A stretch of 19,068 nt of DNA from a virus (taxonomy: Duplodnaviria; Heunggongvirae; Uroviricota; Caudoviricetes): IMG/VR virus record IMGVR_UViG_2529293141_000023, one strand, 5' to 3'. A program made the position numbers. Shown piece by piece: positions 9,601 through 15,600 of this stretch; the first letter of the stretch is position 1; each line of letters begins with the position of its first letter.

Positions 9601-12600
9601 CAGTTTTTTGCGCATTTTTTCAGGGATTTTTCACCCCATCGAAGAGGCTTCCAAGGGGCTGTGAAGTGGGTAGCATTTTGCTGTGATGGAAGGACTACCG
9701 CTACTGTCTGATAATGGTGACGGAGGCCGCTATGTTCGGCTCTGATTGCAGCCTGCCGTATATTCACCAATTTACCTGGCTGTTATTTCCATAACCCGTA
9801 ATGTCGCCGATCCCGTCTGATTCCCATATCGTCAACAGTCTTATTTACAGCATCCTGAAGTTCGCAAGGCATATTTCCCGCCGTCTGGCTATATGCTCTC
9901 GCTGCGGATCGGTGAGGGCCGGAATGGTGCAATTGACGGCGAATGTATACGCATCAATGCTACAGATGTGGTGCTGGTGGACGGGCAATAAAAAACCCTG
10001 AATAACTCCGCTGGGTGCTTCAATTGCACGGGGCGAAATCATTCAGGGTCAGCCGTAACGGGCCTCTGTACAGAGGGCTTCAGTTGCCCAGAGATGAGCA
10101 CCCGCTACAGCCTGCTGTGATAAGCCGCTTTACAGTGAGCTTCAATTGCTCAAAGAGGCGCGTTTTTATCACAACCTGACCGCGATAACCTTCTGCACAG
10201 AGGGCTCCAGTTGCCCAAAGGGGAACATTCTTATCGCGGCATGACGAAATCACCGTGATGTTTTCGTCGTTCACTCATCCCGATGTGTGGGATCAGATAC
10301 ACCGGAATGAGTGCCGAAAAACCGTTGAATGGCTTCATTCAGTCGGGCTCCAGTTGCCCGAGGAGAACACCATCAACGGCTTTTCGGTGGTGATTATAGC
10401 GAATCGCGATAATTGAGCAAATGCGGCAATGAGATGCGTATCACGGTAGCGCTAAATCGTCGCCTGCATCACTGAAGCTGTAATTTCGCCATTCATCCTG
10501 TGGATTAATCCCCATCTCTGCCAGCGTTCTGTCAGCGGCCTTTTTCACATCGCCAAAGGTGACGAACTGCTCAGGCATACGACGGGATTTAATGATACAT
10601 ATCGCCCGACGTCTGGCAGCTTCCTCGCGTTCCCTGTCCGTTTCTGCATGAAGAAGAACCTCAGTCCATCGGGTCGCCGCACGTCGCCATAAACCGCGCT
10701 CCTCAAGTTTCTGTGCCACGCTGTCAGCTATCATCACCATCGTCTCCGGTTGTTTGCTGCTGGCTGTTCTGCTGCTTAATTTGCGCCAGTCTCCGTTTCA
10801 GTAGTTCACTGGCGACTGATTTATCTTCTTCCGTGACTTCGCCGCAAGGCTGCCCGTTCAGGTCATACCGAGCACCACCAGCGATAACAGCATTCAGGTA
10901 TCTGGTTGTGTGGATATACGATATTAACGCGCCGCGCAATACGCCGTGACCAATCGGCAATTCCCGTTCCTTAGCGTCCTTAAGCACATCACGGATCACG
11001 CCAGTTTTCAGGGGCTTCATATTCTCCACGTTGAAAATCTCGGGCCAGTATTCAGCCAGGCGGTTAATCCGTCTGTGGTTTTTTTCGCTGCCGCTTTGTC
11101 ATGTGCTGCCACGGTATGCGCCGTGATGGTTTACGTACTGTCTGGTCCTGTTGTGTGGTCTGCTGGTTCATGTTGTGCTCCTGTCGCTCAGAACGGAATA
11201 TCATCACCGTAAGGGTCATCACCTCCCGCTGGTGGCTGATTTCCCTGCTGTCCGGTCTGTCGTTTTGCTCTGTCCAGTGCTTCGGTCGCCTTCCCCTGCT
11301 GCCCCCGCTTCCCGCCAGGACGCGCCGAACGGGCACTGATTACGCTGTCAGCGATAACCTGCCAGCCCTGCCGTATTTCTCCGTTCTGTCCGGTCCACTG
11401 ACTGATCTGCATGTTACCCGCCACGCTGATAAGGTCGCCTTTTTCATGTCTCGCCAGCGCGTCGGCCTGCTTACCAAATGCCAGGACTGATAGCCATAAC
11501 GTCGCCTGTCCGTCCTGTGCCTGACTGCATGGCAAAGATACCGCCATACGCGCCAGCGTCATCGGTGTGCCCTTGCTGGTCTGTTTTTCCTGCGGGTCGT
11601 CCACCAGCCGCCCGTAAGCTGCAATCTGTGCTGTCATGGTCTGCGCTCCCTGTTCCGGTACTCCTGGATAATACCCATTGTCATATCGAATAAATCACAT
11701 GCCGCTTTTTCTGCATCTTCTGCTTTCAGGTCATACAGCGTCATGAAATGGTGAGTGATTGCCCGTGCGGCTCTTTTGCTGTTTGCTGCATATTGCTCAT
11801 AGATTTTTTCTGCCCGTTCCTCAATATTCAGCCGGAACTCTTCACGCTCAAACAGGTCACGGTGCATCAACGCCAGCGAGTCATACAGCCATGTCACATC
11901 GGCGTATACCGTTCGCTTCCAGACAATCACGATCGGGATATGATTTTCATCGCAGTAATGCAGATGTTTTCCTGGCACTAAAAGCGTTGGCCTGCCACGG
12001 GCAGATACGAACTTCACCACGGAATTATGGTTTTTTGTGTGCTTCGCCGTCATGATTCAGCCCCCGAATTGCCGTTATTACTGTTGCTGTTCACCGGATA
12101 CCAGGCAAAAGACCCCTGCTCACCTGAGAGCGTGAACTTTTCATCAGGCAGATACAGACACGCGCAATAGCCTTCATCGGATGGGTGCGGACCCATACCA
12201 AGCTCACTGGTCAGCACGGGTAAGATTTCGCGGCGGGTGTTCCCCGCACCGAAATAATCAACCTCACAAAGCGCCCATGCAGCAATCGGGCTGTACCATT
12301 CCGTGCCGTCGTCGTCTCTGAACTTCGCCCACCAGCCAGCTACCGCAGGTGAGATATTTTTAACAGTAATTTCACTCATGAATTCATCCTCTCAATTTAT
12401 TTTTTTATATATATACAAAAACACGTCGTCCCAGTTGTCCCAGTTGTCCCAGTTGTCCCACTTACACATAATCCATTGATTTAATTAAAAATACACTCCG
12501 AAAACTGGGACAACATTAGCCGATTTTGGGACAACATGAGGGGTTTTATGTTGTCCCAGTCACCAGCCAGGGTAATTAACGCTCGTTGTGTCGTCCCAAA

Positions 12601-15600
12601 ATGTCGCTATGTCGTCCCAAAATACCCCGATGTCGTCCCAAAATGCTGTAATGTTGTCCCACTTTTTTATTGTATTTTTAGTAAAATCAATCAATTAATA
12701 CGTAGTGGGACAACTGGGACAACATTTTTTCATCGCCTATACGCGAGATTAATCGCTTTCCGTGTCGTGGTCCTGCGCCAGCAAAAGGCCGTACACTCTC
12801 AGGCGCGCCCCTTTCAGGTGTTTTAGCCGTGGTGTCCTGATTTGCCACCCACGACCGCTGGATGGTCTTTTCAGCATTCCGGCTTCATGAAGAACTTTTG
12901 CCGCGGCATCCTTGTTAAATCCATTCGCCACATGTGAGCCGAACGGATCCGGCAGCACGTAGAACAAAACAGGTTCGTCATAACGCCCGTCGCTTTCCCT
13001 GTAGCCGTACAGTTCAGGAATCGGCAGACTGGCGGGGTCATAATTGACAGGGGCAAACCTGCTCATCCCATAGGCCGCAAGAAACGCCTCAGCCTGTTCA
13101 ATAATCTGCTTGTGCTCCTTGTTCCCCGTACCGAACACCTTCACCCAGGCATTAAAGTTGTGCAGTATCGCGTCGCGGCATTCCTGCACGGCCCAGCCAG
13201 TTACATGACCGGAAAGCACAAGCGCGGCCTCCAGTATGGCGAAACGTTCACCCACGCGGTGGACCTGCTCGCCGTAGCTCTCCGGTATCAGGTTGCGCCA
13301 CCGTTCGCGGCATTCCCTTACCGTATCCTTTGCCTCCTGCTGGTGGCCTGACAGCCATTTAACCCACTCACGACCCGCCGCCCCGTGGTTTTCCTTCCAG
13401 GCTTCTTTTAACGCGTCCGCATGTTCCTTACCGTTGCTGTATTCGTGAAATTTCGTGGCTTTCTCCATCGGTACATTAAGCAGGCGGACAAGCTGCCCTA
13501 CTTTTACCTTTATCCCCTCGGTTTTGAGGAATGTTTCAATGTCCACCTCTCCGGTGCTGATAGCAACGGCCCGCCAGTTTTTCAGCTCTCTGTTGCCGCC
13601 GTCCTTTGCCCCCTGTAATTTCCCGAAGCCGTTAAACAGCGTATAAGCCGATACGTACACATCACGGGCGCTTGCTGCCTGTCCTATCTCATCCAGTGGT
13701 AAAAGCCCGTGGTTGTGTGCTTCAGCCTCGTTAGCAATGCCTAACGCTGTTCCGTACCAGGTTAATCGCTGCGCTTCAGGATCACCCCATAAACTCGATG
13801 CCACGCTTTGTGTTGTGGTCTTACCTGCTGTGGAGTTTTCGAAAAAATGCACACCAAAGCCATCAGCACCGACCAGCCCGACTAATGGCGCGGATAATGA
13901 CGTCGCTATGCCCAGCATCATGAACGGATTACCACCAGCCAGCCGCGCCACGCTGTCGCGCCAGCTATCCGCCGTACCCGCCACGGAATAACCGTTAATG
14001 GCAGCACTTTTTCCGGTAAACAAAACGGGCTTGTCAGATTCGCCGATAACCGTACCGTCCGGCATGATGTACGCGCCAAAGTGCCAGCCAGCTTTCGTGC
14101 TTAAGTGCCATTCCTCATGCTGTCCGCCTAACTGCATCCAGTCAGCCAGGGGGATCCTGTGTTTTCCGTTTGTCGTGACTTTAAGCCCGTTGGCTTTCAG
14201 TAACCGCCAGCCGTCACTGTCGCCTATTCCGCAGCAAGGCACGGCCATAGTGACAAGCCGATTTGTTGTCGAATCTGTCCAGCGCATCACGCGGTAATGC
14301 TCGTTACCAATGACACCAGCGCCCAGTAATTCAACCGAAGCACATAACCACGTTTCAGGCCGTATAATTTCGCCTGATTGCTTATCAACCTTTGGCGTAA
14401 CCCAATAAACGCCATCAGGACGGCATTCAACGCGGGGTTTTAATTCGTCATCATAATTTCCGGTGAAATTTGTCTTTGCCGGAAGATTGATCACCAGGCT
14501 GTTGCCGCGTTCCGCATCATCCTTCAGTCCAGCCATGCGCGGTGTCCAGTCCTCCGGCTGCTGGTCAACAAAGCCGCTGTAGCAACGTGCCTCCTTTACA
14601 CCCGCCACCGCAAGCAGTGTTGCTATCTGTAAAAGTGCTGTCTCTGATATTTCACCAGCACGATAAACGCGCACGTAATTGCGCCCTTTGTCGATGATTT
14701 TTGTGTCTTCCAGGCTCGCCAGTTGTTTCGGTCCAAGAATAACGGGCGGTGTATCATCTGCTGCAATATGCTTTCCGGCCCATTCGCTCCACTCTTTCGC
14801 ATGTGCCCATGCATCACTACCTGCAAAGATAATGACTTCGGTCATTTTGTCTTTCGGCTGGAGCTTTAAATTCGGTGCTTTTTTCATTTTTTGCTCCTGA
14901 ATACGTTAATCATGTTTTTCATCTTTCGGATGTTCGCCTCTGCTTTTGTATTGCTGGCTTACCACGTGGCACGGCCTGCATCAGGGAAAAATCACGACTG
15001 AACTGATACAGGGGCATCACGCAGTCATAGTCATACCCTTCACGGCGGTAGGTGATGCGTCGTTCTCTCGTGCTGATAATCGTCACGATGCCGCCGTACT
15101 TATCGCGATAAATATCCCCGCACATAAATTCGGGGTGAGTTTTGCTACTGGCAGTTAAGCCAGATATTTTCGATTTCATGTAATTAGCCTCCTGAAGGAG
15201 TCGTCTTGATATTTATTTCCCGTTTATTTTTAGCCGTTATTGTTCGCCGCGTTTTTCTTCCTCCGTCATTAACCACACCGCCACATTGCTGGAAAGTTGT
15301 TTGATAAGTCCCGCAATAACAGAAAGGTCATGGTCGTCTATTTCTTCGTGGTTGCGTTCAATCATGCGTTCAATCATGCGGCTGATTACTTCGATCTGTT
15401 GCGCTTTCAGTGAGGCTTCTGCCAGTGTCATTTCCTGCATTACTGCACCCCCTTAATTTCATGAACGGCGTGGATAATTACGCCGGATAAACCGGCTTTA
15501 GCTGATTTGTTAATTACTGTGCTGATTGCAGCCTGGACGTTTTCGGCCTTCACGTTCTGCGTGATGCCAACGGTATAGCCACGCTTGTTAACAGCACGGG

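Follow-up and report, generated by a model that had tools for sequence, protein, structure and literature searches.

A Putative Iteron Replication Origin Directly Downstream of a DUF927-Type rep Gene in a Phage-Inducible Chromosomal Island of Escherichia coli

The Repeat Cluster Downstream of rep

The stretch of DNA analyzed here (the window) comprises the 19,068 nucleotides of IMG/VR virus record IMGVR_UViG_2529293141_000023 (Caudoviricetes). It carries a gene for a 712-aa protein of the DUF927 family (rep, 12749..14887, minus strand), and the 369-bp gap (12380-12748) between rep and the next minus-strand gene, which encodes 109 aa (orf109, 12050..12379), is filled by short repeats that form a candidate replication origin. 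When the 19-kb window was searched for the 9-mer GTYGTCCCA, 13 exact copies were found on both strands, all of them within 12425-12723. The chance level was 0.35 copies per whole window, and 13 copies were reached in none of 200 dinucleotide-preserving shuffles. Allowing 2 mismatches added no copies in this region, and the exact search revealed no second cluster elsewhere in the window. The cluster starts 25 nt past the rep stop codon (12749-12751) and ends 46 nt short of the next ATG (12379). An earlier reading made from the sequence only had described at least 13 GTCCCA repeats in both orientations at 12394-12724, directly 3′ of the replication gene, and both the number and the position were borne out.

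The order of the elements was read along the gene strand from the rep stop codon. The cluster opens with a tandem pair of iterons (12706..12723, minus strand; two copies of GTTGTCCCA on the gene strand, +26..+43 after the stop), which was found at the same position and in the same orientation in nearly all homologous loci and in EcCICFT073, the reference Gram-negative phage-inducible chromosomal island (PICI). Then comes AT-rich spacer 1 (12662..12705, 44 bp, 82% A+T), followed by four iterons in the opposite orientation with an exact spacing of 21 bp, or two helical turns (12590..12661, plus strand; GTCGTCCCAAAAT at 12590, 12611, and 12632, and GTTGTCCCA at 12653). The counterparts of these phased copies lie at about +95 to +150 in the homologous loci. 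The central iterons (12506..12558) consist of one more opposite copy (12558-12550, plus strand) and two copies in the first orientation (12535-12506; at 12527 and 12506, minus strand, 21 bp apart), and the iterons at 12550 and 12527 together make an 11-nt inverted repeat. AT-rich spacer 2 (12461..12505, 45 bp, 73% A+T), the inverted counterpart of spacer 1, separates them from a distal tandem array of four opposite 9-bp iterons (12425..12460, plus strand, 36 bp). Beyond the array, a 29-bp run (12394..12422, 93% A+T) separates the last iteron from the next gene's ribosome-binding site and ATG. The order and orientation of the iterons therefore place both AT-rich spacers between converging iterons. 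Moreover, the whole cluster is a pseudo-palindrome, one inverted arm pair of which is 53 nt long and 81% complementary.

As for the individual repeat words, the earlier counts of three GTCGTCCCAAAAT and four TGGGACAAC (at 12506, 12527, 12706, and 12715) were exact, while its four TTGTCCCAG only approximated the distal array, which consists of GTCGTCCCA followed by three copies of GTTGTCCCA. The plus-strand iterons at 12550 and 12653 are additional to these groups. Neither DnaA boxes nor GATC sites occur in the repeat region, consistent with an origin that is opened by its own initiator. The Rfam scan of the window returned no RNA family, the comparison of the origin region with the phage collection gave no match, and the literature search for the 9-mer returned primer noise only.

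The Rep Protein

The product of rep matched Pfam DUF927 (E=1.3e-41) and PHROG 1139 (E=3.5e-144). The PHROGs label of this family is “DNA primase,” and Pfam returned DUF927 only. In a phmmer search against the sequences of the PDB, Rep was matched to the Rep of SaPIbov1 (8tch, E=9.8e-12), a Staphylococcus aureus pathogenicity island (SaPI), and to the SCCmec helicase Cch (5dgk, E=5e-4), and there was a partial match to NCBIfam Cch1. A full-length AlphaFold model was built from a 20-sequence alignment; its use was limited to matching the core fold and to the N-terminal domain. With this model, Foldseek found 5dgk (E=1.9e-6) and 8tch_B (E=3.5e-6) as the sole significant fold matches, with a Foldseek probability of 1.0. 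The window Rep thus has one mark of a SaPI-type initiator, an ATPase core of the MCM-like/DUF927 kind with homology to SaPIbov1 Rep and Cch. The second mark of this type, a C-terminal winged-helix domain that sets iteron specificity, is predicted at residues ~625-712 (12752..13015, minus strand), which would make this domain the iteron reader; its relationship to SaPIbov1 Rep was seen in the fold comparison only.

The N-terminal part of the protein differs from that of its longer relatives. Relatives of ~920 aa carry Zn_Ribbon_Prim and Toprim_3 ahead of DUF927, where the window Rep has an alpha/beta domain of 130 residues (residues 1-130, 14498..14887, minus strand), which was modeled with a pLDDT of 80-90 and belongs to no Pfam family. 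No sequence similarity was found between this domain and the Toprim region of the long relatives, and Zn-ribbon, Toprim, and AEP domains were not detected in the window Rep. Since no primase domain is recognizable, the name “primase-helicase” that had been given to the gene at 12749-14887 lacks support, and “initiator-helicase” is the supported one. The N-terminus is instead related to that of EcCICFT073 Pri, with 42% identity over the first ~160 residues, and the domain may be a primase-recruiting or helper-sensing module. The same 130-residue domain also heads the P4-alpha-type helicases of EcCICFT073 (locus L003, 5242-5720) and of locus L084 (8300-8670), at the place that a Zn-ribbon/Toprim primase takes up in P4 alpha.

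Conservation of the Origin Layout Across 80 Homologous Loci

Eighty loci with rep homologues (51-78% identity) were compared, taken from Enterobacterales with one genome per species. About 74 of the 80 loci carry a 7-9-mer that is repeated 4-13 times, in both orientations, within 550 bp past the rep stop. The positions of the iterons are nearly fixed, with tandem iterons around +25, +34, and +43, phased ones around +95, +106, +127, and +148, further iterons at about +170 to +240, and a distal set of tandem copies from about +260 to +300. The first spacer (+50..+90) contained 67-87% A+T in 39/39 full-size origins, while the second was AT-rich in about two thirds of them. A second measure over +50..+90 gave 75-85% A+T. 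The conserved candidate DNA-unwinding element is thus spacer 1 at 12662-12705 (+46..+89), not the run at 12394-12422, to which the sequence-only reading had assigned this role; its AT-richness was correctly noted, but it is not the block that the family conserves. The run is a leader, a weak promoter region, or an accessory stretch that is easily melted.

Some loci, including L016, L019, L026, L033, L035, L054, and L060, have “half origins” reduced to 4-6 iterons, in which the tandem copies and three phased ones remain together with the AT spacer. Because these loci retain just that unit, the comparison suggests that the proximal unit (tandem copies, AT spacer, and phased copies), which in the window is 12590-12723 as against 12425-12558 for the distal unit, is the minimal origin. 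Where an ssb homologue was detected (L020, L021, L026, L033, L035, L054, L060, and others), the gene starts 170-250 nt past the rep stop. In L011 and L078, there are no iterons and ssb overlaps the rep stop.

Co-variation of the Iterons With the C-Terminal Domain of Rep

The iteron sequences of the 80 loci fell into about 16 classes. The commonest was TGAACCAAC, whereas TGGGACAAC was found in the window and two relatives; other classes were TGAGACAAC, TGGGATAAG, TGAACCGAC, TAACCCAC, TAACCCGT, and TGACACAC. Along most of Rep, pairs of loci that share an iteron exceeded the remaining pairs in identity by ~10 percentage points, and this excess rose to 21 points at residues 630-660 and to 32 points at residues 660-690. 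In a partial Mantel test of 72 loci, the iteron distance was correlated with the distance of the C-terminal domain when the helicase-core distance was controlled (r=0.70; reached in 0/5000 permutations, p ≤ 2e-4), and the reverse partial correlation was -0.34. By these results, the iteron 9-mer changes in step with the C-terminal domain of Rep, not with its helicase core.

Individual loci followed the same trend. The helicase core of L025 and L071, which have a different iteron, was 68-69% identical to that of the window Rep, as high as in any relative, but the identity of their C-terminal domain was only 33-43%. In L004, L007, L008, and L009, which have TGGGACAAS or TGGGATAAG iterons and an intact C-terminus, the identity of this domain was 59-82%. 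The last 73 residues account for 11 of the 25 alignment columns that were most informative on iteron class, and at wing position 683 the class explained 1.68 of the 1.80 bits of entropy. At this position, which belongs to the wing segment 669-697, the window Rep has Ile and the TGAACCAAC class has Arg; Gly is found in most TGAGACAAC loci and in the one other TGGGACAAC locus.

The same 9-mer also occurs beside unrelated helicases. In three IMG/VR contigs, 7-12 copies of GTYGTCCCA were found directly 3′ of a helicase gene (L120, 2028-2282; L129, 2056-2316; L093, 8644-8889), which is of the D5_N/DUF5906 type in L120 and VapE-like in L129 and L093. No similarity to the winged-helix domain of the window was detectable in the C-termini of the L120 and L129 helicases, and the shared 9-mer may reflect convergence or an undetected common reader.

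The co-variation also bears on whether the cluster is an operator array, through which Rep or another regulator would control transcription from orf109 onward, including ssb, proQ, and perC, and which would play no part in replication. The cluster does lie between two co-oriented genes with no terminator past rep, and its last iterons and the AT run are just upstream of the ribosome-binding site of the next gene. Furthermore, iteron initiators often auto-regulate. However, the promoter and terminator scan of the gap passed no gene-strand promoter and showed no strong promoter, the layout matches that of validated origins, and the sequence of the repeats follows the C-terminal domain of the helicase itself. 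The downstream genes, unlike the repeats, are not conserved with rep; orf109, the first gene past the origin, has a homologue in 2/80 loci. Because the repeats track the DNA-binding domain of Rep and the downstream genes do not accompany rep, a purely regulatory role is highly unlikely, while an auto-regulatory side-role is possible. As candidate cassette partners of rep, orf109 and orf139 were rejected, being present in only 1-2/80 loci.

Each AT spacer contains one match to the IHF consensus (WATCAANNNNTTR), at 12469-12481 (minus strand) and 12685-12697 (plus strand), in inverted orientation, and the window has 4 such matches compared to 0.88 expected. The motifs could point to a packaging (cos/pac) or a centromere-like partition site, and Gram-negative PICIs are known to carry helper cos sites (PMC6092414). 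But the motifs are not conserved in the related loci and were therefore not built on, the repeats change with the C-terminal domain of Rep, and there is no terminase or ParB gene nearby. We consider a packaging or partition function extremely unlikely.

Comparison With Known Satellite Origins

The origin of Gram-negative PICIs was located immediately 3′ of the pri/rep gene by Fillol-Salom et al. (2018; PMC6092414). In the same study, the pri-ori segment of EcCICFT073 maintained a temperature-sensitive plasmid, and deletion of either part impaired maintenance (PMC6092414). The gene order of EcCICFT073 is like that of the window (int, alpA, icd-like, DUF4222, rep, origin, ssb, perC), and so is the overall layout of its origin, with two tandem 9-mers past the stop, an AT-rich stretch, inverted and phased copies, and an inverted tandem pair at the far end. 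The two islands differ in the iteron (YTRTCTACC in EcCICFT073, GTYGTCCCA in the window) and in the attachment (att) site, which is ycfD-phoQ in EcCICFT073 and tRNA-Gly in the relatives of the window island. In addition, the window island has a Q antiterminator and lacks capsid genes in its co-oriented part. The C-terminal DNA-binding domains of EcCICFT073 Pri and the window Rep are unrelated, and outside the N-terminal ~160 residues no homology was found between the window Rep and this alpha-like Pri.

The Reps of SaPIs are self-loading initiator-helicases: the iterons immediately 3′ of rep are bound by their C-terminal winged-helix domain, and the Reps open the central AT-rich region in an ATP-independent manner (PMC9371898). 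As far as the work of Ubeda (2007) and Qiao (2022) is represented in PMC9371898, SaPI origins have 6-12 or more iterons, with at least two on each flank of the AT-rich stretch in opposite orientations. SaPIbov1 and SaPI1 resemble the window in having a homologous initiator-helicase (core and C-terminal winged-helix domain) and an origin directly 3′ of rep. In contrast, their iterons are 5-6 bp long instead of 9 bp, and the window has 13 copies, a pseudo-palindrome, and two AT-rich spacers. The SaPI host is Staphylococcus aureus whereas that of the window island is Gram-negative, the identity of the two Reps in structural alignments is only 9-18%, and the SaPI primase (Pri) is a separate or fused protein, while no primase domain is detectable in the window Rep.

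Like the window, phage P4 encodes a multidomain initiator-helicase with a C-terminal origin-binding domain and has short iterons in both orientations. Whereas the P4-type protein combines a Zn-ribbon/Toprim primase with D5_N/DUF5906 and the alpha origin-binding domain, the window Rep has DUF927 only; it has no homology to P4 alpha beyond general P-loop helicase features and no primase domain. Among the scanned open reading frames (ORFs) of the island, no sid, psu, or delta domains were found. The origin of P4 is bipartite (ori and crr) as opposed to the single cluster of the window. In the P4 genome record, crr (4291-4590) immediately follows the 3′ end of alpha (4636-6969, minus strand), whereas ori is 4.5 kb away; TGTTCACC repeats are present in both ori and crr.

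This arrangement raises the question of whether the cluster of the window is a crr-like auxiliary element, i.e., a block 3′ of rep that is required in cis and bound by the initiator, with initiation at a second cluster elsewhere. Sibling islands with a P4-alpha-type helicase and the same repeat as P4 speak in its favor. However, all 13 GTYGTCCCA copies are in one cluster although the window covers the island from the integrase to the far end, the cluster has its own AT-rich spacers between convergent iterons, and in EcCICFT073 and the SaPIs, initiation takes place at the block 3′ of rep. An auxiliary element of this kind is thus very improbable.

Rep and origin vary together among the sibling islands. 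In one sibling at this tRNA-Gly site, a helicase of the P4-alpha type is combined with GGTGAACA iterons, and GGTGAACA is the P4 type-1 repeat, as verified on the P4 genome record. Another sibling has a DUF927 Rep that is 44% identical to that of the window, with GGCGGATA iterons. Since sibling islands at one att site carry differing rep-origin cassettes, rep and the origin were exchanged as a unit. In locus L084 (E. coli CFIAFB20190157, 6356-6846), a sibling island at the tRNA-Gly site, nine GGTGAACA repeats lie directly 3′ of the helicase gene, and the helicase is 49% identical to P4 alpha (L086) at residues 301-771. Judging from the repeat and the helicase, PICI origins of the L084 type are tied to P4 crr.

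The Rep proteins of the iteron plasmids (RepE of F, pi of R6K, and TrfA of RK2), which are not themselves helicases, need DnaA and DnaB-DnaC. The initiator of the window, in contrast, is itself a helicase, and its origin has no DnaA boxes.

The Island and Its Other Genes

The island extends from about 6564 to 19068 of the window or beyond (~12.5 kb). In E. coli relatives with 99.9% identity, it is inserted at a tRNA-Gly gene adjoining actS and xdhA. Strains that have the island include JNEC-KY174 and 2015C-3121. Its genes are on one strand (minus), beginning with a tyrosine integrase (17815..19068; att at tRNA-Gly in the relatives) and alpA (17068..17271; Pfam Phage_AlpA, E=1.7e-20), followed by an Icd-like gene, small ORFs, DUF4222, and rep. 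Past the repeat gap, two small ORFs, ssb (11188..11637; Pfam SSB), and genes for a ProQ/FinO protein, PerC, and a Q antiterminator lie on the same strand. The ssb gene, which is part of the replication zone of the island, follows the origin in EcCICFT073 and in 25/80 loci as well. AlpA is the signature regulator of Gram-negative PICIs (PMC10111431). The window island has this regulator together with the other marks of such elements, which are a size of ~8-15 kb, their own tyrosine integrase, a specific att site, a unidirectional gene organization, PICI-type accessory genes (perC or rdgR, here perC), and the absence of phage lysis and tail genes. No tail or lysis domains were found among the scanned ORFs of the island (not every small ORF was scanned), and the accessory genes encode PerC, ProQ/FinO, SSB, and Q only.

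Several neighboring genes deserve mention. The DUF4222 ORF (14919-15179, minus strand) ends 32 nt ahead of the rep ATG, and its equivalent in EcCICFT073 overlaps the start of pri by 4 nt. The NCBI annotation gives the gene as frameshifted in the closest relatives, and the gene may have 3′-end damage. The gene of the Q antiterminator (8256-8654, minus strand; Pfam E=2.5e-50) is accompanied by no late genes in the same orientation, and Q might act on the late operon of the helper. A 415-aa ORF (15756-17003, minus strand) showed a sub-threshold match to Rha (E=5.9e-5). In the 99.9%-identical genomes, the annotation of this stretch is confined to small genes, one of them YlcI/YnfO on the opposite strand, and at this position other sibling islands have Rha/AntA-type genes. 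The remaining part of the window (1-6563) is not common to the islands of the relatives. It contains an IS3-family transposase fragment (1-633, plus strand) and a gene like that of the phage major capsid protein E (3133-4209, plus strand), on the strand opposite to the island genes, and may be a remnant of a neighboring satellite or prophage.

Discussion

Based on the sequence comparisons, the cluster at 12425-12723 very probably serves a Gram-negative PICI of E. coli as its vegetative replication origin. What the analysis shows directly is the repeats and how they are laid out, the homologies, the preservation of this layout among the related loci, and the co-variation between the iterons and the C-terminal domain. 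The sequence-only reading had proposed an iteron-origin arrangement of the satellite/PICI kind, and the synteny with EcCICFT073, the kinship with SaPIbov1 Rep, the conserved layout, and the co-variation all argue for it. This kind of origin is already well described; what is new is the combination of a DUF927-type Rep, GTYGTCCCA iterons, and a tRNA-Gly island.

A number of points weigh against this conclusion. Among Gram-negative islands, the experimental support comes from EcCICFT073, whose helicase belongs to a different family (D5_N/DUF5906/Pox_D5, P4-alpha-like, versus DUF927/MCM-like in the window). The iteron block directly 3′ of P4 alpha is crr and not the initiation site. The full-length Rep model was poor (pLDDT 60), so that the core fold match rests partly on sequence, and the profile of the C-terminal domain returned nothing meaningful from the PDB sequences. 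The DUF4222 gene that immediately precedes rep is annotated as frameshifted in the closest relatives, which means that the island could be partly decayed. Finally, the allele is rare, since only 5/5426 complete E. coli genomes carry it, with 97-98% identity in the origin region.

The last two points would fit a decayed remnant, i.e., an origin by descent that is no longer used along with its Rep. The fragmented icd-like genes annotated in the relatives would fit as well, as would the lack of identified cos or packaging genes in the window, in which a cos site was not searched for. Against decay, Rep is full length and 100% identical to the copy in an IMG/VR contig (a genome-derived prediction), and a protein 90% identical to it represents a cluster of 255 members. 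Furthermore, 13/13 iterons are perfect. The two relatives that were aligned have exactly one 9-bp unit fewer in the distal array (3 versus 4) and one substitution, a T>C in the iteron at 12706 in the closest E. coli relatives; the difference in the array is unit-wise copy-number variation. The intact Rep and the perfect iterons with whole-unit variation suggest purifying selection, and it is very unlikely that the origin has fallen out of use.

For a functional vegetative origin, the following course of events can be proposed. A helper phage would induce the island through AlpA-driven transcription, upon which the 712-aa Rep would be made. Rep would be a ring-forming MCM-like helicase that doubles as the initiator, with its C-terminal winged-helix domain reading the 9-bp GTYGTCCCA iterons. 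These converge on an AT-rich spacer, with two tandem copies on one side and four 21-bp-phased copies on the other, and the Rep assemblies from both sides would melt the spacer at 12662-12705 and possibly also its mirror image at 12461-12505. These assemblies would next become helicases by self-loading, independent of DnaA and of any separate loader, and the excised island circle would be copied by host enzymes. The iteron sequence would act as an address label that keeps Rep specific to its own island. For the window origin, we infer binding, melting, self-loading, helper dependence, and the choice of the opening spacer. The N-terminal module may recruit a host or helper primase, or it may couple replication to helper induction.

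A wider proposal, which we put forward tentatively and hold to be rather doubtful as a whole, is that the DUF927 Reps of Enterobacterales satellites form a natural set of interchangeable initiator-origin pairs, in which a fixed geometry is re-addressed by a few residues of the wing. Reps of the window type would have lost the primase and gained the N-terminal module, and the origin with two spacers may load two pairs of helicases.

The current picture of PICI and SaPI replication is not overturned by these results. For an island of Shiga-toxin-producing and related E. coli that carries PerC, they locate the site that acts in cis in replication, together with the likely reader of this site, which is useful for annotation, for predicting the incompatibility of co-resident satellites, and for building minimal replicons. 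Most worth following are the shared N-terminal domain that takes the place of the primase and the family-wide co-variation data set. On a single conserved origin scaffold, the 80 loci offer ~16 iteron specificities found in nature, each with a paired winged-helix domain, and they are thus a source of data on how winged-helix domains read DNA.

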